A DNA stretch of 64,000 nucleotides. Origin: Candidatus Hinthialibacteria bacterium OLB16 (GTDB taxonomy: Bacteria > Hinthialibacterota > Hinthialibacteria > OLB16). A model generated the notes under the pieces. That model did no database searches, was not told the origin of the DNA, and saw only the letters and a program-made list of their open reading frames with translations. Shown here piece by piece: positions 3,001 through 60,800 of the stretch. Location of the stretch: NCBI GenBank assembly GCA_001567115.1, contig LMZT01000038.1:9530-73529 (forward strand), written 5' to 3'. Position numbers and translations under genes: made by a program. Positions within the stretch are counted from its first letter, which is position 1. Each line of letters starts with the position of its first letter.

Positions 3001-6000
3001 TCAGCTGGGGTCCTCAAGGGCGCTTTACACCCTGGCTGTCCACCAAACCGAAAATATCCCTGGATGGGGAAAGGATATTCGAAGCAACCGATTGGGGGAT
3101 AAATGTCCTCTTCCGAACCGCAGGAAAACCGATCTACCGCATTTCGGATTCACTGGGAGATAAAGGATACGATATCTCTGCCGATGGGTCTAAAGCGGTC
3201 TGGATGACTCCCCAGAACAGGCTCCGGGTCAGCAGCATCTCCGAAGGAGGATCGACCCTGATCCTCGATCGGGATGCCGGTTTCAACTACAACAGCCTGA
3301 CCATGTCCGATGCCGGTGAGAATGTCATTGCAGGGGACCGCATGTTCAGTGCCATCGGTGGCGGGCTTCTGGCCAACTATGCCGGCCCGGATCGTGAAGC
3401 TCAGAGCGCATTCAGCGCGGATGGAAGCCTGTGGGGATTCATTATTCCCCAGGATCATTCGATGGTCACCTGTCGCACAGGTGATCCGAACGCCGTCCTT
3501 TATAACCTCATGCTGACAGAGCCTTATACACCCTACAAGATGCTCTATCACCCCGACAACAATCGTGTCGGCTGTGTCGACTCGAACAATGGTGTTCAGT
3601 TTTATGACATGAGCACCGATTTGCCTGTCGGCCTTTACCGGTACCAGTACAATAGCGATGCCGCCATCTCCAGGGATGGAACCCTGCTGCTGATAGGCGG
3701 CCGCAATCAGGTCCGCATGTATGAAGTCCGGACAGGCCGAATTCTCCGCTATTTTTATCCTCAGCATTCGGGCCTGGCCGATGTCGATGTGCGGGGGGTG
3801 CAGTTTGCACGCAACGACACGATGATCATGATTGCCTGGAGCCCGAATTACATCGAACTCTACGAACGCAGCATGCCGGTGGGGATAGAAATCAATCCTG
3901 CCAACCGTGTTCTTTCAGCAGGTGACAGCCAGGCCTACCAGGTCTCTGTCATTTATGATGATGGAACTCGCGCGGACGTGACTCCATCGTCAAACAGTCA
4001 AGGTGATCTGGCAGGCCTTGTCTCAGACTCCGCTGGGAAGGCATCTGTCGATGGCAATGTTGTGACCCTTCTTCCGAATGCTTCAGGAGTTATCCGGATC
4101 CAGGCTCGTTTCCGGGATAGCGGCAGATCCTTTACCGCGGAGGCAGCCATCAATGTCGGCCAGACCAGCCTGGTCGGGCTGATCCCACATCCGGATTCAA
4201 TGAGCATGATACCAGGCGTATTCCGGGAAATCGGCTATACCGCACGGTATGCGGATGGTTACGAGGAGGATGTGACGGAAAATGTGGCGCTGACATCAAA
4301 TCGTCCGGATGATGTCGTCATCGCCGGCCAGAGTGTCAAAGTGAATCTGACCTCGATCCCAGGAAACATTGAGGTCACTGGCCATTATACCGATGCGCAT
4401 GGCCAGAGCGCATCAGCCAAAACAATCATCCAGGCTTATGGATTGCGCACACAGTGGGAACGTTACCGCATCACAGCCGGCGGTTATGGCCTTTCAGGGG
4501 CCTGGAGCCCAGACAAGAAAAAACTCGCCTGGGGATCGAGTTCAGGGGGTGTCGCTTTTTACAATACCGGCGTGACTCCCAGCCAGTATAAACTCGATCG
4601 TATTCTGATGGCGCATGAGGGGCAGGTGATCTTCGTCGACTACCTCTCCCCGACGACACTGGTCAGTGTCGGCCGCGAAGGAACCGTCAAGACATGGGAC
4701 ATGATAACCGGTTCGACTGTCCCTGTTTCGGTTTACTCGCATGACGCCCCTCTGCGTGTCGCTGCCAGAAGCGGCGGAAAACTGGCGCTCGGTGATGCTG
4801 TTGGAAAAGTGGCTGTCTTGAACCTGCCAACCTTCGACCTCGACTGGTCGAAGGCCTTCCATGAAGGGCCGGTCAAATCCATCGCCGTCGATAATGCCAT
4901 CGTCATATCCGGCGGCGAGGATTTCCGGATCAAGATCCTGCAGCGCAGCGATGGAACCTTGAATCGAAATCTGCTGACCCACACAGGAGCGATTGTCAGC
5001 GTTGGATTCATGGGAGCGAATGTCTTCTTTTCCCTGAGTGAAGATAAAACCATGACCCTCTGGCGGCGTTCTGACTACGAGGTGCTTCAAAGGTACGAAT
5101 ATCCTGTTGTCCCCACAGGTGCCGAGCTGATCAACAACGAACTGTATGTGGCAACGACGAATCCGAATGCCACATGGATTTATAACATGGATGGACTCCT
5201 GCTGCGCTGGCTGGAACACCCGCCTGCAGAGGGGGGCATCGTGAAGTACCTCATTGACCCGAGCGGAAAATTCGTACTGACTGGCCGTGCGACAATCCTT
5301 AAGGATGAAGTGAATTCCTTCGATGGATCAGTCATCAAAAAGCCAAGCCCCTTTGGATCGTTCCAGTTCTGGGAGGTGGGACGCGGTATCTTCCGCGGCT
5401 CACTGGCTCACAGCCATCCTCTTTCGGCAGCCTTCGCATCACCTGATAAGAAAACTCTCTTCACACAGGATCCCAAGCGGGTGATTCGGTGGAGCTATGG
5501 AGTGAAAGATGCCACTGCCGAATCAGTGAACCTGCTTGAGACCGGCTACTTCCTCGGACAATCCTTTGCCGGATTGGACTTTTCAGGCGATGCCCAGCTG
5601 CTGGCAACCCGGGTTGGTGTGTCGGTCTATCTGTTCGACACTTTCAATGCCCTCCTCTGGAAAACGCTGCATACCCCCGGCCCTGGCCCATTCGCGATAT
5701 CGCCAAACCGGCAATTCTTGGCCAGTGCGGATTGGAAGGTGCGGCTCTGGGATCTCAACAACCTCAGCCAGATCAATGAAGAGGCCCGATCGGTTGCCGC
5801 TGTTGATTTCCGCGGGAACACAAACTTCGTCGGTGCGGTTCAGGCCGATAATTTCATCGGTGTCTGGAACGCACAGGGGAAGCTCCGAATCGGGATGCAG
5901 ACCACTCATGGCCCAATCAAACTCTATGTCAACTCGACCGGAACACGCTGTGCTGCCATCACCCTGCATGTTGAATGCGGCGCTTTCGGGGATTGCGAAT

Positions 6001-45386: not shown

Positions 45387-45463
45387 GGGCGCTTAGCTCA
45401 GCTGGCTAGAGTACTTCCTTGACATGGAAGGGGTCACTGGTTCAAGTCCAGTAGCGCCCACCA
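45387..45463 (+). tRNA. tRNA-Val (anticodon GAC), CCA encoded.
   Basis: Cloverleaf read by eye. Acceptor GGGCGCT/AGCGCCC, D arm GCTC-AGCTGGCTA-GAGT, anticodon arm CTTCC-TTGACAT-GGAAG, T arm ACTGG-TTCAAGT-CCAGT, discriminator A plus CCA. Confidence 0.85.
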
Positions 45464-45597
45464 CGAATCCCCGGAGCATCCAACACCCATTTCCTGCCTC
45501 CGTGGGCCGGGAACGGGTTCTTTGTTTTCCTCCCGGCTTTCAGGATGATGGATCCAATGAGTTTCCGGGCGAATTTCGTGCCAGGAAACTGTTAATT

Positions 45598-47580
45598 ATG
45601 GCAAGTGAACCAACAGTCCAGAACATGATCTCACTCACACTGCCGGATGGTTCGATCCGTGAAGTGGCCGAGGGGACGACCGGTCTGCAGTTTGCCCAGT
45701 CGATTGGCAAACGGCTGGCGGGGGATGCCCTTGCGATTTCGCTGAATGGGCGAACCACCGACCTGAATATCCCATTGACCGCCTCTTCCGAAATCAGAAT
45801 CCTGACTTTCAAGGATCCGGAGGGGCGTGCGGTATTGCGCCATAGCTGCGGTCATGTCATGGCGCAGGCGGTGATGGATCTCTTCCCGGGCGCCGCGCCT
45901 GCCGCCGGTGATTGGGCTGATGAACGCTACTTTTATGATTTCCAGGTTTCACGCCCGTTTACTGCAGAGGATCTCCAGAAGATCGAGCAACGGATGACGG
46001 AAATCTGCCAGGCGGATGTTCCATTCAAACGAATGGAGCTCCCCGCCGATCAGGCCCTTCAGGCACTGGGTTCCACACGCAACCTTTTCAAGGAAGAGAT
46101 TATCGGTGACCTGGCTGGCCAGGGCCAGGTGATCTCCTGCTACAGCCAGGGAGACTGGGTGGATCTGTGCCTGGGAGCGCATGTCCCTTCCACTGGAAAA
46201 ATCGCCGCCTTCAAGCTGCTCATGACCGCCGGAGCCTACTGGCATGGCGATGAATCCAATCCGCAGCTCCAGCGGATCTACCTGACTGCTTTCCCTTCCC
46301 GGAAAGAGCTGGATGAATACCTCTCTCAGATCGAGGAAGCGAAAAAGAGGGATCACCGCAAACTCGGGCAGGAACTCGACCTGTTCACCATCTCCAGCGA
46401 TGTCGGCAGCGGCCTGGTGCTCTGGATGCCGAAAGGGGCGGCACTCAGGTTTGAACTCGAAACCTTTCTTCGCGGAAAACTGGTCGAATATGGTTATCAG
46501 ACAGTCTATACCCCCCATATCGGGAAGCTGGACCTGTACCGGACCAGCGGCCATTTCCCTTATTACAAAGATTCTCAGTTCCCTCCCATTCACATGAATG
46601 AACATGGGGCCGAGGCAGAAGACTCCGAGGAGGGGTATCTGCTCAAACCGATGAACTGCCCGCATCATATCAAAATCTACGAAGCCACCCCGAAAAGCTA
46701 CCGGGATCTCCCCTATCGCCTGGCGGAGTTCGGCACTGTCTACCGTTACGAGCAGTCGGGAGAACTTTCCGGCATGACTCGAGTGCGTGGATTCACCCAG
46801 GACGATGCGCATCTTTTTGTCACGCCCGACCAGCTCGAAGAGGAGCTGCAACGGACAGTCGATCTGGTTTTGTTTATCCTGCGCAGCCTGGATTTCAAGG
46901 ATTACCGGATTCGCTTCGGCAAACGGGATCCCCAGAGTGAGAAGTTTGGCGGTTCAGCCGGCCTCTGGGACCGTGCGGAATCCAATATCCGCAATGTGCT
47001 GCGCGGAATGAATATGGATTTCTCTGAAGAAGCGGGTGAAGCCGCTTTTTATGGGCCGAAAATTGACTTCGTGGTGCGCGACTGCCTGAACCGTGAATGG
47101 CAGCTCGGCACAGTCCAGGTGGACTATGTGCTGCCGGAACGTTTTGATCTGAAGTATATCGGTTCGGATGGAAGCCCGCATCGCCCGATCATGATCCATC
47201 GTGCCCCATTCGGTTCGCTCGAGCGGTTTGTCGGCATCCTGATCGAACATTTCGCCGGGGCTTTTCCAGCCTGGCTGGCGCCGGTCCAGGTCCGGATCCT
47301 GCCGGTTGTCGATGAGGTTTTACCCTATGCTGAAAAAGTGTATGCTGCCTGCCGCGCACATGGATTCCGGACCGAACTGGATTCACGCGCTGAAAAAATC
47401 GGTTATAAGATCCGTGCCGCTGAAACTGAAAAGGTTCCTTTCATGCTGGTTGTTGGCCGAAGGGAAGCCGAAAGCGGTTCGGTTTCACTCAGGAAAAGGA
47501 CCCAGGGAGATCTGGGAACCCTTCCTTTGGAAGAAACTATAGGTAAACTTCGCGGGGAGCTGGCCAGGCCAGCCGAATGA
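45598..47580 (+). CDS. thrS: Threonyl-tRNA synthetase.
   Basis: N-terminal TGS domain (MISLTLPDGSIREVAEGTTGLQFAQSIG). Class II aaRS core (HIGKLDLYRTSGHFPYY, RVRGFTQDDAHLF). C-terminal anticodon-binding domain. The ORF-track start at 45424 runs through the tRNA and is rejected. Confidence 0.85.
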   Translation: MASEPTVQNMISLTLPDGSIREVAEGTTGLQFAQSIGKRLAGDALAISLNGRTTDLNIPLTASSEIRILTFKDPEGRAVLRHSCGHVMAQAVMDLFPGAAPAAGDWADERYFYDFQVSRPFTAEDLQKIEQRMTEICQADVPFKRMELPADQALQALGSTRNLFKEEIIGDLAGQGQVISCYSQGDWVDLCLGAHVPSTGKIAAFKLLMTAGAYWHGDESNPQLQRIYLTAFPSRKELDEYLSQIEEAKKRDHRKLGQELDLFTISSDVGSGLVLWMPKGAALRFELETFLRGKLVEYGYQTVYTPHIGKLDLYRTSGHFPYYKDSQFPPIHMNEHGAEAEDSEEGYLLKPMNCPHHIKIYEATPKSYRDLPYRLAEFGTVYRYEQSGELSGMTRVRGFTQDDAHLFVTPDQLEEELQRTVDLVLFILRSLDFKDYRIRFGKRDPQSEKFGGSAGLWDRAESNIRNVLRGMNMDFSEEAGEAAFYGPKIDFVVRDCLNREWQLGTVQVDYVLPERFDLKYIGSDGSPHRPIMIHRAPFGSLERFVGILIEHFAGAFPAWLAPVQVRILPVVDEVLPYAEKVYAACRAHGFRTELDSRAEKIGYKIRAAETEKVPFMLVVGRREAESGSVSLRKRTQGDLGTLPLEETIGKLRGELARPAE

Positions 47581-47628: not shown

Positions 47629-48250
47629 GTGCAGGGGAAAATTCCCAAACCCAAAGACCGGATCAACTATGACATCCGCGAGTCCGAGGTTCGTCTGGTC
47701 GATGAAAATGGCCAGCATGTCGGGGTGATCAACACCCAGGAAGCCATCCGGCGGGCCGAAGCGGCGGGTCTGGATCTGGTGGAAGTATCTTCTGCTTCAA
47801 GACCGTATGTCTGCCGCATCATGGACTACGGCAACTATAAGTATGAACAGGCCAAGAAGCAGAAAGATGCGCGCCGGAAACAGCATGTCATTGATGTCAA
47901 AGAGGTGAAATTGCGGCCACGAATCGACGAGCACGATTATGAGGTTAAAATGAGGAATGCCCGCAAATTCATCCTGCAGAACGACAAAGTGAAATTCGTG
48001 GTCATGTTCCGGGGTCGTGAACGGAACCATTCGGAATTCGGAACGAAACTCCTCTCCCGGGTGATCGAAGAACTTCAGTCGATCGCCATTGTGGAATCCC
48101 GCCCCCAGTCGGAAGGGCGAAACCTGATCATGGTGCTCGCTCCGGATCCCGCGGGAGTGAAAGCCGAAAAGGCCAGGCTGGAGAAACTTAAAAAACTGGA
48201 GGAAAAGGAGGCCGCATCAAGCGCTGCTTCCCCCCAAAAGGAGTTCATAA
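47629..48250 (+). CDS. infC: Translation initiation factor IF-3. In the assembly it reads through, in frame, into rpmI (see findings). True start codon uncertain; non-canonical starts are usual for infC.
   Basis: KDRINYDIRESEVRLVDENGQHVGVINTQEAIRRAEAAGLDLVEVSSASRPYVCRIMDYGNYKYE...FRGRERNHSEFGTKLLSRVIEEL...IMVLAP. Confidence 0.8.
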
Positions 48251-48444
48251 TGAACAAGATGAAGACTCAACGGAGCGCAGCGAAGCGGTTTTCGCTGACA
48301 AAGAAGGGTAAGATCAAACGATCCAAGGCCTATCACAGCCACCTTCTGACTTCGAAAAACACCAAACGGAAACGCGGCCTGCGCAAGGCTACGTATATCT
48401 CCCCTTCGGATGAGGGGCGGGTCCGCCGCATGTTGGGATTGTAA
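48250..48444 (+). CDS. rpmI: 50S ribosomal protein L35.
   Basis: MNKMKTQRSAAKRFSLTKKGKIKRSKAYHSHLLTSKNTKRKRGLRKATYISPSDEGRVRRMLGL. Own RBS AAGGAG 7 nt upstream of the ATG. Confidence 0.8.
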   Translation: MNKMKTQRSAAKRFSLTKKGKIKRSKAYHSHLLTSKNTKRKRGLRKATYISPSDEGRVRRMLGL

Positions 48445-48908: not shown

Positions 48909-49955
48909 ATGGCAATTCTCTCCGGCGAACTTCAGAACCAGCTCGAATCCATCCGCCAGGAGGCCCTGGCGGAGCTTTCGGCTGCATCTGACCTGCGGGC
49001 GCTTGAAGAAGTTCGAATTCACTTTCTCGGGCGCAAGGGGAAAATCAAGGACCTTCTCAAAAGCCTCGGCTCACTGCCTCCCGATGAGCGTCCTCTGGTG
49101 GGTGCCCAGGTCAACCGGCTTCACGATGAAGTCGAACTTGAACTGAACAACACCAGGATAAACCTTGAAGAAAAAGCCCTCGAAGCACGTCTCGCCGGTG
49201 AAAAAATCGATATCTCCCTCCCGGGCCGTGATGCGGATATCGGCGCCTTTCACCCGGTCAGCCTGATTATCGACGAAATCGCCTCCCTGTTCCTGCGGAT
49301 GGGATATGATGTCTATGATGACCGTGAAATCGAAACCGATTACTACAACTTCGAAGCCCTGAACTTCCCGGCGGATCATCCCGCTCGCGATATGCAGGAC
49401 ACCTTCTTTCTGGATGGGGGCCTGCTGCTGCGGTCCCATACTTCCAATGGGCAGATCCACTACATGGAGAATCACAAGCCGCCCCTCAAAGTGATTGTTC
49501 CCGGGCGGGTTTACCGGCGTGACAGCGACCCAACCCATCTGCCCATGTTTCACCAGGTTGAAGGCCTGGTGGTAGGCAAAGGTGTTTCCATGGCCAACCT
49601 CAAATGGACCCTCGAGACCATGATGAAAGCGCTCTTCGGACCTGATTCAACCCTGCGTCTGCGTCCCAGCTTTTTCCCTTTCACCGAACCAAGCGCCGAA
49701 GTCGATATGTGGTTCGACACCGGAAACGGGCAGGGGCGCTGGCTTGAAATGGGCGGGGCGGGCCTGGTCCATCCCAATGTCCTGCTGGCCTGCCAGATCG
49801 ATCCGGAAGAGTGGAGCGGCTTCGCTTTTGGAATGGGAGTCGAACGGCTTGCCATGATCCGATACCGGGTTCCGGACATTCGCATGTTCTACGAAAACGA
49901 TGTGCGTGTGCTCGAGCAGTTCCGTGGTGCACGCCGTTATTCGGCTTTCTCCTGA
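48909..49955 (+). CDS. pheS: Phenylalanyl-tRNA synthetase alpha subunit.
   Basis: FNFEALNFPADHPARDMQDTFF, GRVYRRDSDPTHLPMFHQVEGLVVG, FPFTEPSAEVD class II motifs. pheT does not follow in this window. Confidence 0.9.
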   Translation: MAILSGELQNQLESIRQEALAELSAASDLRALEEVRIHFLGRKGKIKDLLKSLGSLPPDERPLVGAQVNRLHDEVELELNNTRINLEEKALEARLAGEKIDISLPGRDADIGAFHPVSLIIDEIASLFLRMGYDVYDDREIETDYYNFEALNFPADHPARDMQDTFFLDGGLLLRSHTSNGQIHYMENHKPPLKVIVPGRVYRRDSDPTHLPMFHQVEGLVVGKGVSMANLKWTLETMMKALFGPDSTLRLRPSFFPFTEPSAEVDMWFDTGNGQGRWLEMGGAGLVHPNVLLACQIDPEEWSGFAFGMGVERLAMIRYRVPDIRMFYENDVRVLEQFRGARRYSAFS

Positions 49956-50096
49956 TCCTTCCTGACAAATCATGCCTGGTGAGAGGTCAGCTGACCCCGG
50001 GATGACCGGGTATCCGGAAGTGTGTTCATGGGTTAATATGAAAGTGCTGAATACAGAAGTTCAGAAATACGCTCCACAATCCTTCCGGCTTGCTTC

Positions 50097-50864
50097 TTGA
50101 TAGAATCTTGCCGGTTTTTTGTCGATGTCATGACAGGTTCAATCTCACGCAAAATATCTCTCCAGGGCACGGGTACATTCTCGTCTGGTACCGATAACGA
50201 AATACGGCGGATTCGCCTGATCCACGAAGCCCACTCTCCCTCTCAGGCCGATATCTGGCTGGTGGAATGGCAGGGCAGGGAATGTGTGCTGCGGGATTAC
50301 TCGAAACCCCGGCATTTCTATTGGCGTTTCATCTGCCGCTGGGCGGTTCGGCGGGAAATCAAAGCCCACCAGCTGCTCGATGGAATCGATGGCATCCCCC
50401 GCCTCCTTAAGGTCATAAACCGGGACAGCTACCTCATCGAGTACATCCAGGGTTCTTCCCTCCATTTTAGAAAGCACCAGCCTGCCGCCGAGTTCTTCGA
50501 TAAGCTGGGATGGATTGTTGGCCAGATGCACTCCCATCAGGTGGCTCATGGAGATTTCCGCAACAAGAACATCCTGGTCGGGCCGGATGATTCCCCTTAT
50601 GTGATCGATTTCACAACAGCCTGGTGGGGAACCACCTGGTGGCGAAAACCGCTCTTTCGGTTTTTCTGCCGGCTCGATGACCGTCGCCTGGCTGTTTCCC
50701 GGGCGCATTTCCTTCCCGAGCAGTTTACAGAGGAAGAGCTGGATCGGATTGCCACTGGCCCATTTTACATCCGTATCGGCAAGTTCTACCGGAAGAAAAT
50801 TTACCCGCTGTTTGCTCCTTCAGCGAGCAAAAAAGCCCAGAAAAGAGCCAACCGTAATCGGTAG
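50097..50864 (+). CDS. Small atypical protein-kinase-like protein (lipopolysaccharide kinase Kdo/WaaP family or RIO-like).
   Basis: 255 aa. Catalytic-loop-like HGDFRNKNILV and DFG-like VIDFTTAWW. No other domains. Confidence 0.45.
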   Translation: MIESCRFFVDVMTGSISRKISLQGTGTFSSGTDNEIRRIRLIHEAHSPSQADIWLVEWQGRECVLRDYSKPRHFYWRFICRWAVRREIKAHQLLDGIDGIPRLLKVINRDSYLIEYIQGSSLHFRKHQPAAEFFDKLGWIVGQMHSHQVAHGDFRNKNILVGPDDSPYVIDFTTAWWGTTWWRKPLFRFFCRLDDRRLAVSRAHFLPEQFTEEELDRIATGPFYIRIGKFYRKKIYPLFAPSASKKAQKRANRNR

Positions 50865-50957
50865 TTTTTTTCGGGCGAAGCAAATTCACTCCAATGTTTC
50901 CATTTCCGGGATGTCCGTGGTAAATTAAGGACATCCTGGCAAGGAAATTTCTGCCCA

Positions 50958-52376
50958 ATGACGAACAGTCTCGCTGATCCATCCCTCGAAACCTCCAGCT
51001 CCTGGCTGGGGGGGCTCAAGAATCGTTTCTGGAATGAGCTGGAAGAGCCATCCGGATTTCTGAGGATGCTGCGGCTGTCACGTCCTGTTGCTAATCAGAG
51101 CTGGCTCTGGAGTGACCGCCGCCTGTCGCACCGGCTGGCCTCCCTTGAAAAGCTGGCCTTCTGGAAATCTGAAGAATGGCGCCTCAACCCCGAAATCGAA
51201 TCCACCCGCAGGGAGTTTCTGACCGGCCTGCGTGAATCGATCGGCCCACGGCTGAAAAAGATCGAGAACCTGAATGAACGGCGCCGGATCAACCGGTTCC
51301 TGACACGGGTCGAAGCCAGGCTGGGTGTGGTGGATCCCTATTGCCGCCCCACTCGTGCGCGGGTTGAACTGACCGATGCCTGCAACCTGCGCTGCCCGAT
51401 GTGCCCTCAGTCTTTCTGGGAATGGGACCGCCGACATGCCGATGAATGGATCCTGGAACGGGCCAGAAGCCTGTACCCCTGGCTGACCCAGCTCGATTTC
51501 ACCAGTTTCGGCGAAACCCTGCTCTCTCCATTGTTTCGCAAGGCCCTGCGTGACTCGCCTTCCCATGCTCACACACTGCTGATCACCAATGGGCTGCTGG
51601 TCAATGACGATATGGCCGAGTTCATAGTCAGCAACAATCTCAGCGAACTGCATGTTTCGATCGATTCCGCATCCCCTGAAGCGTATCTTGCCATGCGTGG
51701 CGTGGATGGGTTCAAACGGGTCATCGAAAACTGCCGCAGGCTGGTCCGAGCCAAACTCAAAGCCGGCAAACAGGAACCTGTTCTGGTGTTCAACTTCACA
51801 CTCAACCGAAAAAACTTCGAGGAACTCGAACCCCTGATCCAGCTCGCGGCTGAAATTGGTTTTCAACGGGTTCATGCCAATTATCTGCTGGTCTGGCGGC
51901 CGGATTTGCGCGGGGATTCGATCTTCTGGATCCGTGAACAGACCTGCGAGCTGCTGGACCGTTGCGATGGCCTGGCGGCACGCTCCGGGATCGAATTCTT
52001 CCATCCTCCCAAACCCCTGGCGGAGCATGAAGGGCGAGAGCGTTTCGAACGGTTCTGTCCCGAAGCCTGGGAGTTCATCCATATCCGCGCGGTCGGGCGG
52101 ATCGCGGTGTGCTGCATGTCTGCAGATGAGTTCGAAGCACCCCCTGAAATGTCCTGGGAAGAGATCTGGGACTGTCCCGCCTACCAGAACTTCCGCCGAA
52201 TGGTCAATCTCCCGGGCGATGAAGCGCCCCCGTTGTGCCGGAACTGCCACTTCGGCCGTGACATCCAGCCCGGTGACCCGCGCTTCCACTTTTTCGAAGC
52301 GACCCTCGATGAACACCTCACCGGCCAGGCCAAAGATCCTTACCTTCGCAGCCAGGGCGAATGCCTGACCCTCTGA
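50958..52376 (+). CDS. Radical SAM enzyme with C-terminal SPASM/twitch-type Cys-rich domain and a ~130-aa N-terminal extension (peptide/protein-modifying maturase candidate).
   Basis: CNLRCPMC (CxxxCxxC) radical-SAM cluster motif after the N-terminal extension. C-terminal cysteines FCPEAW...AVCCMSADEF...WDCPAYQNF...PLCRNCHF. 3' end overlaps the next gene by 16 nt. Confidence 0.7.
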   Translation: MTNSLADPSLETSSSWLGGLKNRFWNELEEPSGFLRMLRLSRPVANQSWLWSDRRLSHRLASLEKLAFWKSEEWRLNPEIESTRREFLTGLRESIGPRLKKIENLNERRRINRFLTRVEARLGVVDPYCRPTRARVELTDACNLRCPMCPQSFWEWDRRHADEWILERARSLYPWLTQLDFTSFGETLLSPLFRKALRDSPSHAHTLLITNGLLVNDDMAEFIVSNNLSELHVSIDSASPEAYLAMRGVDGFKRVIENCRRLVRAKLKAGKQEPVLVFNFTLNRKNFEELEPLIQLAAEIGFQRVHANYLLVWRPDLRGDSIFWIREQTCELLDRCDGLAARSGIEFFHPPKPLAEHEGRERFERFCPEAWEFIHIRAVGRIAVCCMSADEFEAPPEMSWEEIWDCPAYQNFRRMVNLPGDEAPPLCRNCHFGRDIQPGDPRFHFFEATLDEHLTGQAKDPYLRSQGECLTL

Positions 52377-53421
52377 ATCTTCCTCTGATGAAAGGACACC
52401 AATCTGTGGCCCGTTATTTCCTTACCCTCATGGCGGTTTTCCTCCTGTTTCTTCAGGGGTGTACGACTGAACCTTCCAGCCCACCGCCGCCAGCCGGCCA
52501 GGAGCCGAAAACAGGTGGTTCGTCTTTATCGGATACCGCTTCCCAGGCGCCCAAGCCAGCACCTCCAGTCAAAAACCTTTACGATGAAAAAGCGGATGCC
52601 TCCAGACAGGTCGCCGATGCCCTTCACGAAGCCCGCCAGGACCATAAGCATGTCCTCATCCAGTGGGGTGGCAACTGGTGCCCCTGGTGCTTCAAACTCC
52701 ATGCAGTGCTCGAGTCGGATCGCAGCCTGCGGGGCCTTCTCCGCGCTGAATATGTCTATGTGCCCATCGAGAGCAAGAATGTGGATTTGGCGGCCTCCTA
52801 TAAGGCCCCGGTCAACAGTGTCCCCTTCCTGACTGTGCTCGATGCCGATAATAAAGTGCTGGCCAACCAGCCCACCGATCCTCTCGAGGATGGCGACCAT
52901 TATGATGCGGCCAAAGTCAAAGCCTTCCTCGAGCAGTGGAAGCCAGCCCCTCTCGATGCGGAGCAGCTGCTGGCGGCTGCACTCGGACAGGCACGCAAAG
53001 ACCAGCGCTCGATCCTGATTCACTTCGGCGCGCCTGGTGCATCTGGTGCAAGCGCTTCGATCGCTTTCTCAGCCGGGAGGATATCCAGCCGCTGATCTCT
53101 CCGGATTTCATCAACCTCAAAATCGATATCGAACGCATGGCTGGTGGAGAAAAGGTCTACCGGCAGGTTCGCAAACAGGGGCAGGGAATCCCCTGGTTTG
53201 CCATCCTCGATGCCAATGGTGAGGCTGTTTCCACCTCGGATGCTCCCGCTGGGAATATCGGATTCCCCATCAGCCCGGGTGGCATCGATCACTTCCTGGG
53301 AATGTTAGGTTCTTCGGCTCACCATCTCTCCAACGAGGGAAAAGGGAAAATCCAGGCGGCGCTTCAGGCGGAGGCAGATCAGGTTCTCACCTCCATGCGC
53401 ACCTCCGGAAGACCCAACTGA
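52361..53421 (+). CDS. Lipoprotein with two thioredoxin-like domains (WCPWC and WCIWC CxxC motifs; TlpA/DUF255-like thiol:disulfide oxidoreductase), interrupted by an apparent C2/C3 homopolymer indel near 53031-53036.
   Basis: Lipobox LFLQGC. Domain 1 HVLIQWGGNWCPWCFKLH. After the frame switch, domain 2 ILIHFGAP|WCIWCKRFDRF repeats the same pattern. The two ORF-track pieces 52361-53095 and 52936-53421 join once one C is added. Confidence 0.65.
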
Positions 53422-53477: not shown

Positions 53478-54113
53478 TCAGGCTGGAACCAGCTCCTGCC
53501 TGGCCCGCTGGATGAACAAGCGCATCAGATCGGCATCCTTGATGCCCGGCCTGGTTTCCACCCCGCTGGCCACATCCACTCCGCTGGGCGAAAGCCGTAT
53601 GATCGCATCGGCCACTGTCTCCGGGTTAAGCCCCCCCGACAAAATCCAGGGGGCTGGCGGAGTCCAATCCTCCAGGATCGACCAGTCAAAAGGCTTTCCG
53701 GTTCCGCCACGCTGGCGCGGGTCGAAAGCATCCAGCACCAGGGCATCACATGGATAATCTCCACAATCTTTGAGCGACTGCGCGCCTGAAACACGGATCG
53801 CCTTCCACACACGCAGCCCTTCATTGCGAAGATCCCCAGCAAATTCAGGCGGCTCCTGGCCATGCAGCTGAATCGTATCCAGCCGCAAGGCTTTGGTGAT
53901 CTCCATCACACCCTCAAAAGTTGGATCGACAAAAACTCCCACACGCAGTCCGAAAGGGGGAAGGTGATCGATCAGCTCCCGTGCTTTCTGCAGATCGATG
54001 TAACGGGGCGAACGGTCATAAAAGTTGAATCCCAGAGCATCAGCGCCGAGATTGAGCGCGGCGAGAGCATCCTCCCGGCGGGTGATTCCACAGATTTTGA
54101 CTCGCATGGACAT
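53478..54113 (-). CDS. trpF: Phosphoribosylanthranilate isomerase.
   Basis: MSMRVKICGITRREDALAALNLGADALGFNFYDRSPRYIDLQKAREL...GVFVD... typical TrpF TIM barrel. 211 aa. Confidence 0.85.
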   Translation of the reverse strand: MSMRVKICGITRREDALAALNLGADALGFNFYDRSPRYIDLQKARELIDHLPPFGLRVGVFVDPTFEGVMEITKALRLDTIQLHGQEPPEFAGDLRNEGLRVWKAIRVSGAQSLKDCGDYPCDALVLDAFDPRQRGGTGKPFDWSILEDWTPPAPWILSGGLNPETVADAIIRLSPSGVDVASGVETRPGIKDADLMRLFIQRARQELVPA

Positions 54114-54567: not shown

Positions 54568-54597
54568 TTGACAGACCTCTTTCGTCTAGGTTATATT
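54568..54597 (+). promoter_or_regulatory. Sigma70-like promoter (TTGACA, 18-nt spacer, TATATT) about 210 nt upstream of the giant adhesin start.
   Basis: Read directly in the AT-richer 590-nt intergenic region 54114-54804. Confidence 0.35.
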
Positions 54598-54804
54598 CTC
54601 AGTCAGCGTGCCCAATCTCTATCTGTGTTGAGCCCAACTTAGGGGGTATTCTCTCGACGGGGTCGAGGGATCTGATTTTGACGGTTTGCAAGGAGAGGTG
54701 CTGTGTCTGAAAGTTCATCCGCCGATTTATCAATCCCTGGACTATCACCAAAGTGTTTTAATGGTTTTTGCAGAATAGAAAATTTGAGTCAGAGGAGGAG
54801 TAAG

Positions 54805-57800: not shown

Positions 57801-60800
57801 AGCCATCCTCAACTACGGCATCGCGCTCCTGCCGGATGGAACCTACACAATCACCTCATCCGCCACCGATACCGTTGGCAATGTCGCGCAGTGCGGGTCG
57901 ATCGTCGTGACTGTGGATAATAACAGCCCGGTTGCCGCCATCCTCAACCCGCCACAGGCTGTGGTGAATGGCACCGTGGAGGTGAGTGGCTCTTCATCGA
58001 ATGCCACCTCACTTATGTTGTCCTATCCGGGTATTGGCGGTGGTCTGCTTTCCCCGCTGGATGCAACGACCACGGCTATGGTCCCTCCGACCGTAGTCTT
58101 CGACACCTCACTGCATGATATGAATTCCGAGGTGCTGGTTCCGTTCTCACTCGGATTCACTTTCCCGTTCTATGGCAATTGCTACGATTCCGCGTATATC
58201 TCTGCACGCGGTCTCCTCGAGTTCCAGAATCCCACATCACCAGGTGCAACACCGACTGTTCCCCTCGTCAACAGCATCACTCCCAAGGTGATGGGTCTGT
58301 GGTCGGCGATCGACGCTCCGGTGATCAGGGTGGTTCAGTCACCTACCGCCAGTATGATGACCGCTTCATCGTCGATTTCACCAATGTCCCTGATGAAACA
58401 GGTTCCGGCACCAACACGTTCTCGATCACACTTTACGAAACAGGTGCTGTGAGCTTCATTTATGCCGCGACTCCCGATGTGACTTATGATTACCCCAGCG
58501 CAGTCGGTATTTCCGGCGGCGTCAATGACCAGGATGTCACCGGTTTTGTTCCTGAAGCACTGGTCAGCAATGGTGTCGACCGTCCATCCATCAATCTGTC
58601 AGGGTTGACCGGCTTCCCGCTTCTTGCTGTTTCTGAATCGATGGCGGTGTACGAGATCTTTGAAGTCTCTTCGTTTGATCTCGGTACCGGTTACAGCGCC
58701 CAGGGAACCACCACCAGCATTCCGGTTCCAGTTGGACTTGGTGGTGCCTGGAGTGCGACAATTCCTGTGACAAGCCTGTTCCCGGTGGATGGAAGCGCTC
58801 AGGATGGAGATCCTTATAATATCTTCATTACACCCTTCGGCGGCTGCAATGGAAATTCTGTCGGTGATTGCTTCAACATGATCTATGTCATCGACCAGAC
58901 TGTCCCGCAGGTCGATTTCGTCAGCGCATCGGTTCCTGCCTATTCCTGTGTTTCGAACATCTTCGATGTGACCTACGAGGCCAATGATGCCCTCTTCCCA
59001 GGATGGCGGATTAACTCTGGGATCAATGCGGTCACCGCTGAGGTTTACCAGCTTGGTGCCTTTGTGGCCAATATTCCTGTGGTTGCAGTTCCGCCTTTGC
59101 CAACAGTGCCAAACAGTGGACCAGTTTCTCTCCTGATCAATGTGGATCCGAACAACATCCCAGGCCTCCAGCCAGGTTATTTCGGAATCGATGTGGTTGC
59201 GGAGGATACTGCCATTGATCTGCCCAACATTAATTCCTGGGCGGGCGGAGCTCCACCAGAAGTGTATTTCTATGACCCGTTGGGGCCTGTTTCTCAGCCG
59301 GTGTGCTCCAGGCTCTTCATTGCTGCTGTCACTGAAATCGCGGGTGCTTCCCAGACTTCGATCTATGAACTCGATCCGGATACCGGTGATTTGAGGCAGG
59401 AAATTGCCCTCCCGGCGATTATGTCTTCAACTCTCGGTTGTGCTTTAGGCTTCAATGGACAGAATCTGTACTATGCACCGACACGGGCTGCCAGCTCCGG
59501 TTCGGTTCTCTATTCCTTCGCAGCTGTTACAGGACCAGCCCCGGCAGTCGCTTCGGTGGTCCTGCCGGTCAGCCAGATTACCGGTATCGGTGCAGAAGAC
59601 GATCTTGTCTTTGTCAATGGACCTGTCGGCCAGAATTTCGTTTATGTTCTTGATGCGTCAACATTGATCCTCCAGGGGACCCAGACTGCATATAACGTAG
59701 CCCCTTGGACCGAAATTGCTGGTGCTGAGGTTGGATCCGGTATCTTCAACAGGACCTATGTTGCCAGATTGGCCGATCCTCCCGGGCCTGCAACGATGCT
59801 CGATATGTTCTACGAGACCTTCCCCGGTGGTCAGCTGTTCATGACCTTTGGAACACCAAACTTCCGAACCACAGGTCTTGGATTCAGTGGAACACGCCTC
59901 TTCCAGGGACGCCTGCCGGATAATGTCATCCGTGAGGTTGTCACCACCACACCCCATGCGGTCTACAATAGTGGTTTCCTGCTGAATTCATTCGGGGTTC
60001 CCAATGGAGCCACAGTGTGCGCAGTTGCTGCGGGTCCGATGATTGGCGAATGCACTCTCTGCCTGAATGATCTTCCAGCCAATCTTGCAACAGCGGTCAC
60101 CGATACCGCCGCCTGCGGAATCTCACAGGTCGACATTTATGCAATGCCATACGGCGCAACAGTGCCGTACCTGATCAATTCTGCAACCACATTGCCTGAT
60201 CTGGCGGTTCGTCCTTATGTACCGACTTCACCGTCAGCGGCTGTAGCCTATGGCCAGTTGACAGCGGCCTCGGCAGCCCAGTTCTTCCCGGCTGGCGAGG
60301 GTGAAATTCTCGTCTACTCCCAGGCCACGGATATTGCTGGGAATGTCGAATCACTCGGAGGCGCCCTCTCTCGCGGCATCACCTATCGTGTTGACTTCCG
60401 TGAGCCAAGAGTGGTCTATCTGGATACAGACCCCCATGCCACACGGGGCGATTATCCGAACAATGTCAATGTCACTCTGGCCATCGAGGATGTGGCTCTT
60501 GTGACATCCACTGTCTCCTTGACCGCCCAGTTCAGCACATTGGTTGGCAATGTCGATGTTGCCCTGCCGCTCGTTGTCAGTGGCACTGCGGTGAGTGGTC
60601 CGAACATTGTCACCACAACCTTCACGACCAGCTTCAATCCGGCTGGACTGGTGCTTTCGACAACTCAGTCGGCCTACATCGACTTCCTCATTGCTGCGAC
60701 TGACGAATGCCAGAATACAACCAGCACGGTTCTTATCGACCGCTTCATCGTCGACAATGCCACTCCTGAGGCCCAGCTGCCGGCTCCATCCTATCCGGCA

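Follow-up and report, generated by a model that had tools for sequence, protein, structure and literature searches.

The stretch of DNA analysed here, called the window throughout, comprises 64,000 nucleotides (nt) of contig LMZT01000038.1 from Candidatus Hinthialibacteria bacterium OLB16 (assembly GCA_001567115.1). It contains, in succession on the + strand, genes for a kinase-like protein, a radical S-adenosylmethionine (rSAM) enzyme and a thioredoxin-like lipoprotein, which an earlier reading of the sequence alone (the original prediction) had taken for one maturation cluster. Comparison with related loci leads to a different view. The conserved unit is the kinase-rSAM gene pair, and the thioredoxin gene is an unrelated local addition. 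Tentatively, we prefer a reading in which the pair forms a two-gene cytoplasmic module acting on one shared, unlinked substrate, with a protein or peptide as the favoured class.

The chemistry of rSAM enzymes with SPASM or Twitch domains is unusual, and their substrates tend to be guessed from gene neighbours. The family found here falls outside the curated families, possesses a substrate-side domain of its own and occurs with a kinase whose ATP site is unusual. Should the two proteins work together, a new kinase-plus-radical modification and a new recognition domain are possible in these poorly known uncultured bacteria. Currently, it is one among many uncharacterised rSAM families, nothing indicates a specific product, and the pair belongs as a variant to a well-known enzyme class and cannot be recognised as a maturation cluster. 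The original prediction is corrected in that the genes number two and not three, the C-terminal domain is of the Twitch and not the SPASM type, and an apparent pseudogene is probably a homopolymer error.

Conservation and distribution of the gene pair

The kinase and rSAM genes lie next to each other in six sequence-distinct contexts (window/L001, L010, L011/L012, L006, L009 and L018; Table 1). The spacers between them measure 63-165 nt, and identity across the pair-bearing loci falls to 52% for the rSAM protein and to about 50% for the kinase. In three of these contexts (L009, L011 and L018) the pair is kept where both flanks differ from those of the window. In the window, L010 and L006 the pair has pheS upstream; in L009, L011 and L018 it does not. 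The proposal that the two genes are conserved neighbours is thus borne out.

The thioredoxin gene behaves differently. It is absent from the orthologous position in L010, L011, L006, L009 and L018, which are five of the seven lineages in which the downstream region was read, and it is found only in the window species and, in a single-domain form, in L016, these being the two closest lineages. Because of this absence the three-gene cluster fails, while the two-gene pair stands. The three genes are not co-conserved in related genomes, an outcome that the original prediction itself had named as evidence against it.

Table 1. Gene order at loci with homologues of the rSAM protein, the kinase or both (identity is that of the rSAM protein; (-), minus strand)
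Locus	rSAM identity	Gene order
window / L001	100%	pheS, kinase, rSAM, two-domain thioredoxin, trpF(-)
L016	76%	contig starts within rSAM gene; one-domain thioredoxin lipoprotein (4-nt overlap with rSAM stop), trpF(-)
L010	69%	pheS, transposase remnant, kinase, rSAM, trpF(-)
L011 / L012	68%	glycoside hydrolase genes, kinase, rSAM, trpF(-)
L005	66%	GGDEF(-), rSAM, pyrF(-); without kinase
L006	59%	thrS...pheS, kinase, rSAM, pseudouridine synthase(-)
L009	54%	unknown gene, kinase, rSAM, rpe
L018	52%	unknown gene, kinase, rSAM, aceE-like
L052, L053, L054	42-46%	rSAM without kinase; in L054, GT4 glycosyltransferase 11 nt 3'
L013, L059, L060		kinase without rSAM homologue

As had been concluded originally, no precursor-peptide gene accompanies the pair. 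An all-versus-all comparison of the ORFs (open reading frames) of 20-130 amino acids (aa) in 12 loci detected no conserved small ORF near the pair, only shadow ORFs within large genes, and the spacers measure 45-174 nt in most loci. Together, the short spacers and the lack of a conserved small ORF rule out an adjacent precursor peptide. A 42-aa ORF in the pheS-kinase spacer of the window (49972-50100) has no counterpart elsewhere and is species-specific. In L010, an ORF of 81-86 aa between pheS and the kinase gene looks like a decayed IS200/RAYT-type insertion. Specifically, two ORF fragments at 5289..5778 of this locus carry the motifs MPDHIHLF and YVSLNPQRKGLV, which we take to be those of an IS200/RAYT-type Y1 transposase; the called 81-aa ORF gave no match in Pfam.

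Both families are rare. The rSAM family consists of 11 clusters at an identity of at least 48% among 5.8 billion proteins, with three more that are more distant, and it occurs in 5 of 185,579 species genomes. All of these are metagenome-assembled genomes (MAGs) of uncultured organisms, one of which is labelled Candidatus Omnitrophota. The kinase family consists of 17 clusters, one labelled Candidatus Omnitrophica. Both families are found in uncultured MAGs that are either Omnitrophota-labelled or unclassified. A metagenome scan yielded two further same-species copies and one locus that was already known. In the window, the base composition of the gene pair is that of its surroundings, indicating that the kinase and rSAM genes are native. 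A defence-system or phage origin, for example a prokaryotic viperin plus a kinase, is ruled out, since relatives of the kinase or the rSAM protein were not found in viral contigs and the PADLOC defence models showed generic likeness only (pVip with 40 bits on the rSAM core, and about 24 bits on the kinase catalytic loop). Literature searches yielded no description of this kinase-rSAM pair.

Some distant relatives occur in other surroundings. The most distant rSAM member, in L054 (6187..7572) and L055 (5078..6463), which shares 46% identity over the aligned region and 44% overall, has no kinase beside it and lies downstream of a gene for a 1,020-aa protein with a PQQ-type beta-propeller and a methyltransferase domain; the GT4 glycosyltransferase gene comes 11 nt after it. 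At L059 (1673..3762) and L060 (3279..5371), two further lineages, the kinase homologue has DUF58 and SLT (lytic transglycosylase) genes after it, with no rSAM gene.

Domain structure of the two proteins

The rSAM protein matches the Pfam model Radical_SAM (PF04055) over residues 136-296 with 59.2 bits (cut-off 29.5) and the model SPASM (PF13186), which also spans Twitch domains, over residues 367-431 with 29.7 bits (cut-off 21.5). Among 13 aligned family members, which extend down to 40% identity, the cysteines C129, C142, C146, C149, C367, C385, C427 and C430 are invariant. C386 nearly is, but conservation does not extend to C407 of the window protein. The CxxxCxxC cluster of the original prediction, the motif for the [4Fe-4S] cluster that binds SAM, is thereby confirmed as C142/C146/C149. 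The SPASM-type C-terminal array is not. The SPASM domain is defined by the seven-Cys motif CX9-15GX4C - gap - CX2CX5CX3C - gap - C, with two auxiliary clusters (PMC6231123), and the Twitch domain is a shortened version of SPASM with three or four Cys ligands and one auxiliary cluster (PMC6231123; PMC9012708). The pattern in this family, C367-X12-G380-X4-C385(C386)...C427-X2-C430, keeps the first SPASM element, but the CX2CX5CX3C block is absent, being reduced to C427-X2-C430. Judged by this cysteine pattern, the C-terminal region is a Twitch-type domain whose four invariant cysteines would hold one auxiliary Fe-S cluster. The Twitch-domain model NF033640 also aligns with residues 365-432, scoring 49 bits, which is below its cut-off of 170.

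None of the named rSAM families in NCBIfam reaches its cut-off with this protein. The best curated matches are TIGR04317 (tungsten cofactor oxidoreductase rSAM maturase, 102.5 bits) and TIGR04311 (Geobacter-type metalloenzyme maturase, 84 bits). These matches extend from the rSAM core into the beginning of the C-terminal domain but lie far below the cut-offs of 380 and 400, and both of these families lack the N-terminal domain and have other gene contexts. Lower scores were obtained for PqqE (38.9 bits against 381), MftC (38.8 against 265) and MoaA (37.9 against 284), and the models for SkfB, ScmE/F, AhbC/D and NirJ all fall much below the TIGR04317 score. Moreover, anSME, SCIFF, QhpD and HemW are not among the 25 best NCBIfam matches. 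Thus, the subfamilies that had been suggested for comparison (anSME, SCIFF maturase, QhpD and PqqE-like) did not match at cut-off, and with all scores so low the protein is ruled out as a member of a named family or as a housekeeping enzyme such as MoaA or HemW, a classification that the original prediction had named as evidence against itself.

By sequence profile, the closest solved relative is the Twitch-type sactisynthase SkfB, which makes the sporulation killing factor (PDB 6EFN; E 2.6e-9 over query residues 127-301), followed by CteB. SkfB is also the top Foldseek match of the rSAM structure model, although this model is of low confidence and its matches are generic to rSAM enzymes. Each of the two proteins has an extra domain at the N-terminus, an rSAM core and, at the C-terminus, a domain with a single auxiliary cluster. 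In contrast to the present family, SkfB has an N-terminal domain that is a canonical RiPP (ribosomally synthesised, post-translationally modified peptide) recognition element, or RRE (PMC6231123), where the domain found here is predicted to be all-helical and is unique to its family. In addition, the NCBIfam SkfB model scores only 26 bits against a cut-off of 300, and the genes described here have no adjacent precursor gene. The Twitch enzymes of the BtrN/MoaA type share the truncated SPASM arrangement, in which the hairpin is flanked by one Cys on each side and a CX2C comes later. They differ in lacking the N-terminal domain and in acting on small molecules, and the invariant C129 is additional here; the MoaA models reach 27-38 bits against cut-offs of 231-325.

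Approximately 135 residues precede the rSAM core and are conserved across homologues. Invariant or near-invariant positions are W51, R55, R59, E64, R84, R92, R109, R110, N112, E119 and the invariant motif PYC129RP that closes the domain, in which C129 lies directly before the core. The domain is rich in Trp and basic, with 15-20 Arg and an isoelectric point (pI) of 9.8-11.2 across members (20 Arg and pI 10.7 in the window), although the rSAM protein as a whole is acidic. An extension of about 130 aa at the position of an RRE had been noted originally; the extension is real, but its reading as an RRE is not supported. RREs are winged helices built from a three-stranded sheet and three helices (PMC6231123), whereas the AlphaFold2 (AF2) model of this domain, at moderate confidence, has helices only, within residues 16-121 and without a beta-strand (predicted local distance difference test score, pLDDT, 60-76). 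Residues 1-134 gave no match in Pfam at E<=1, including PqqD, and a profile of the domain retrieved only five clusters from 1.84 billion cluster representatives. Four of these are proteins of 450-480 aa, similar in size to the window protein; the remaining one is a fragment of 83 aa. These results speak against an RRE, and the N-terminal region is a domain found solely in this rSAM family.

The kinase-type fold that had been placed directly upstream of the rSAM gene, on the same strand, is supported by Kdo-, APH-, RIO- and Pkinase-type matches on the 255-aa ORF. The Pfam models APH (PF01636, 27.1 bits against 23.2) and Kdo (PF06293, 22.3 against 21.3) exceed their cut-offs, covering only 32-41 residues around the catalytic loop, while RIO1 (PF01163, 21.5 against 22) and Pkinase (21.6 against 31.7) remain below theirs. 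The NCBIfam models for Kdo kinase and Bud32 fall far under their cut-offs. The AF2 model (pLDDT 86) has a protein-kinase fold, which Foldseek matches best to the kinase domain of CurKC, a class III lanthipeptide synthetase (LanKC), and to archaeal and human Rio2, with template modelling (TM) scores of 0.55-0.59. LanKC and Rio2 also rank first when a sequence profile is compared with the PDB (E about 2e-8 to 1e-7).

Members of the kinase family are 198-317 aa long, with a pI of about 10. Among 20 sequences, H140-G-D142, N147, D160 (in IDF) and the alphaC residue E76 are invariant. In place of the beta3 (VAIK) Lys, Arg is invariant (VLR55DYS); the loop between beta1 and beta2 has the sequence AHSxSQAD and lacks the Gly-rich GxGxxG. 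With the LanKC/CurKC kinase domain and Rio2 the family shares the minimal kinase fold, the short C-lobe, the HxD...N motif and the metal-binding Asp. It differs from both in the Arg in place of the beta3 Lys, the missing Gly-rich loop and an identity of 15-20%. Furthermore, it is a stand-alone protein of 220-244 aa without the lyase or cyclase domains of LanKC, and it lacks the winged-helix domain of Rio2. The fold is that of a minimal atypical kinase or ATPase, which is probably active. Since signal peptides were predicted for neither the kinase nor the rSAM protein, both should be cytoplasmic.

Possible roles of the pair

What we infer for the pair is its functional coupling, the class of its substrate and its chemistry. 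If the two enzymes share a substrate, it would be phosphorylated by the kinase, or undergo some other ATP-dependent handling, and the Arg-rich N-terminal domain of the rSAM protein would dock it, as the RRE does in RiPP maturases. Abstraction of a hydrogen atom would fall to the rSAM core and handling of the electron to the auxiliary cluster. A protein or peptide is favoured because the nearest solved relatives of both enzymes act on peptides or proteins, and because the large extra domain suggests the recognition of a macromolecule.

Several points weigh against this proposal. The rSAM gene stands alone at L005 (66% identity), L052, L053 and L054, as does the kinase gene at L013, L059 and L060. 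Several of the pair-bearing loci share wider synteny, so their adjacency may be partly inherited gene order. The Pfam families that the kinase matches above cut-off, APH and Kdo, are those of sugar or small-molecule kinases, and the matches are short. The structure model of the rSAM protein (AlphaFold, shallow alignment) has a mean pLDDT of 64, which is too weak for counting clusters or for classing the N-terminal fold. Lastly, many Twitch enzymes, such as BtrN and MoaA, act on small molecules, and function is not predictable from similarity within this rSAM subfamily (PMC6231123).

A role in a sugar, glycan or lipid pathway is possible, if somewhat doubtful, and such a substrate is nearly as plausible as a protein or peptide. 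The APH/Kdo-type kinase would phosphorylate a sugar, a cyclitol or a lipid-linked intermediate, which the Twitch rSAM enzyme would oxidise, dehydrate or rearrange in a manner comparable to BtrN, DesII, BlsE and AprD4. The Trp- and Arg-rich, basic segments present in both proteins would hold the enzymes at the inner face of the membrane or bind an anionic substrate. Consistent with this, APH and Kdo are the Pfam models over cut-off, with Pkinase and RIO1 under, and BlsE, DesII and AprD4 appear among the Foldseek matches of the rSAM model. A single auxiliary cluster is also typical of small-molecule Twitch enzymes (PMC6231123). Some neighbours point in the same direction, namely the GT4 glycosyltransferase gene 11 nt downstream of the distant L054 member, the glycoside hydrolase genes upstream of the pair in L011 and the Wzy_C, GT2 and SASA genes around the lone kinase of L013. 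However, these glycan-related neighbours vary from locus to locus, and no further pathway genes are conserved beside the pair. In addition, the APH and Kdo matches span the catalytic loop only, whereas LanKC and Rio2 come first by both profile and fold, with no sugar kinase in the top 50.

The pair may also lack a functional link altogether, the two genes having remained neighbours through inherited gene order in a narrow clade while acting on separate substrates. The loci at which one gene occurs without the other nearby, together with the flanks shared by several pair loci (pheS upstream and trpF downstream), are compatible with this explanation. It is nevertheless unlikely, since the same order and short spacers are kept at about 50% protein identity with both flanks changed (L009, L011 and L018), and both families share the same very narrow distribution.

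The position of the pair directly after pheS in the window, L010 and L006 raises the question of the translation apparatus. A Rio2/Bud32-like kinase or ATPase and an Arg-rich rSAM enzyme, co-expressed with thrS-infC-rpmI-rplT-pheS, would modify rRNA, tRNA or a ribosomal protein. No terminator-like sites were predicted in the inter-gene spacers, including that between pheS and the kinase gene, and the kinase resembles Rio2 and Bud32. It is also strongly basic (pI about 10), as is the rSAM N-terminal domain (pI 10-11, 15% Arg). In half of the contexts, however (L009, L011 and L018), the pair lies away from translation genes, and in L010 the transposase remnant separates it from pheS. Pfam detected no RNA-binding domain, and we know of no SPASM/Twitch rSAM enzyme that acts on RNA or ribosomal proteins. 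Overall, this explanation is distinctly unlikely.

The most novel scheme, though an improbable one, is a phosphorylation-primed radical modification, in which the kinase would mark Ser/Thr, the Arg-rich domain would dock the phospho-substrate and the Twitch rSAM enzyme would modify it. The substrate would be an unlinked cellular protein, possibly a translation component, because the pair recurs after pheS. If true, this would represent a new two-step post-translational modification with a new recognition domain replacing the RRE, in a candidate phylum.

The original prediction treated all three genes as a maturation cluster: a SPASM maturase with an RRE would act together with the kinase and be translationally coupled to the tandem-thioredoxin lipoprotein, its partner or substrate. 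This fits the common strand and tight spacing in the window species, the 4-nt overlap of the thioredoxin ORF with the rSAM stop in L016 and the peptide maturases among the closest solved rSAM relatives, but it is highly improbable and largely refuted by the neighbourhood survey, the thioredoxin gene being missing in five of the seven lineages. In addition, the N-terminal domain has no RRE match, the seven-Cys SPASM motif and a conserved precursor ORF are absent, and the lipoprotein is exported where rSAM enzymes are cytoplasmic.

The thioredoxin gene and the surrounding region

Positions of the genes and sites discussed are listed in Table 2. In the window, the thioredoxin gene is present not as the single ORF from 52361 to 53421 that had been described, but as two overlapping ORFs in different frames (52361-53095 and 52936-53421); the kinase and rSAM ORFs were placed correctly. 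The frame breaks at 53033, where GCGCCCTGG appears as GCGCCTGG, with one C of a CCC run missing inside the second WCxxC motif, which is thereby destroyed. Four independent assemblies of the same species (L001, L002, L056 and L057; 98.4-99.5% identical) have the extra C and an intact gene, encoding a lipoprotein of 338 aa, or of 353 aa if the longest ORF is taken. A second deletion in the window, evident against L001, L056 and L057, which span this position, removes one C from a C7 run at 48230 and merges infC and rpmI into one ORF of 271 aa (47629..48444); it is probably a homopolymer error of the same kind. With two single-base losses in C homopolymers, the second of which lies where infC meets rpmI, assembly error is favoured over decay, and the frame break in the thioredoxin gene is probably a homopolymer sequencing or assembly error. 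True pseudogenisation is judged less likely in view of the second C-run deletion and of a frame change in the giant gene described below.

Table 2. Features of the window around the gene pair
Feature	Position	Strand	Remarks
pheS	48909..49955	+	last gene of thrS-infC-rpmI-rplT-pheS block
kinase-like gene	50130..50864 (ATG); longest ORF 50097..50864 (TTG)	+	244 aa (ATG); 255 aa (TTG)
radical SAM gene	50958..52376	+	472 aa
family-specific N-terminal domain of rSAM protein	50958..51359	+	residues 1-134
CX3CX2C radical SAM cluster motif	51381..51404	+	CNLRCPMC; C142, C146, C149
Twitch-type auxiliary-cluster region	52056..52247	+	C367...C430
two-domain Thioredoxin_7-type lipoprotein gene	52388..53421	+	candidate starts 52361, 52388, 52406
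1-nt deletion site in CCC run of thioredoxin gene	53030..53036	+	window versus L001, L002, L056, L057
trpF (PRAI)	53478..54113	-	convergent with cluster; directly after rSAM gene in L010 and L011

Both halves of the third gene match Thioredoxin_7 (PF13899), and the intact orthologue does so with 87.1 bits and two domains. The protein has a signal peptide ending in FLLFLQGC (lipobox LQGC) and the motifs WCPWC and WCIWC. Two CxxC domains, as originally described, are thus present, but they are of the Thioredoxin_7/DsbH-like and not the TlpA type, the TlpA/Redoxin model (PF08534) scoring 17 bits against a cut-off of 26.6. Periplasmic oxidoreductases of the Thioredoxin_7/DsbH (DUF255) type share the PF13899 matches, the WCxWC motifs and the lipoprotein signal peptide. 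In contrast to these, the protein of the window species is a tandem duplication, whereas the form in L016 has a single domain, and the gene is not co-conserved with the rSAM gene. The 16-nt overlap between the rSAM and lipoprotein genes, from which co-translation had been deduced, exists for the longest ORF only. Two alternative in-frame start codons, ATG at 52388 and GTG at 52406, lie 3' of the rSAM stop, and the GTG is the one that gene calls on other assemblies use. The lipoprotein is an exported thiol-disulfide oxidoreductase outside the kinase-rSAM module. Its suggested role as partner or substrate of the rSAM protein is unlikely, since it is exported and the Fe-S enzyme is cytoplasmic, only local adjacency linking the two.

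On the + strand, the order of genes is tRNA-Val, thrS, infC, rpmI, rplT and pheS, then the kinase-like, rSAM and thioredoxin ORFs, which are followed by the convergent trpF and a very large gene for an Ig-domain surface protein. For the kinase gene, the ATG at 50130 is the start used by gene callers on other assemblies of the window species. The spacers flanking the gene, originally given as 94 and 142 nt, come out as 93 nt between the kinase and rSAM genes and, on the pheS side, as 141 nt with the TTG at 50097 as start or 174 nt with the ATG. The spacer directly 3' of the kinase stop varies within the species, measuring 10 nt in the window (50871..50880) and 43 nt in L003 (649..691) and L056 (4064..4106). 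A search of the region for riboswitches and other known RNAs gave no match to an Rfam family. Upstream, the tRNA-Val gene (GAC; 45387..45463) covers the first 40 nt of the longest thrS ORF (45424..47580), and consequently the true start of thrS must lie further downstream.

The gene for the giant Ig-domain surface protein starts at 54703 and its frame stops at 58452, while a second frame is open from 58119 to beyond 61499. The frame thus shifts at about 58.1-58.4 kb, which looks like another frameshift; no + strand ORF of at least 90 aa is listed between the two frames. Its relatives in L010 and L011 have called lengths of 3,853 and 3,279 aa, in both cases cut off by the locus end. Given relatives of this length, the gene in the window probably encodes more than 3,000 aa and runs off the window. 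The sequence upstream of it (54568..54700) contains a near-consensus sigma-70 promoter (TTGACA-18-TATATT), 3' of which the leader can form the stem-loop TCTCTCGAC-GGG-GTCGAGGGA at 54650-54670. In contrast to the rest of the 590-nt spacer, the promoter and the stem-loop are conserved in four lineages (window, L010, L011 and L016).

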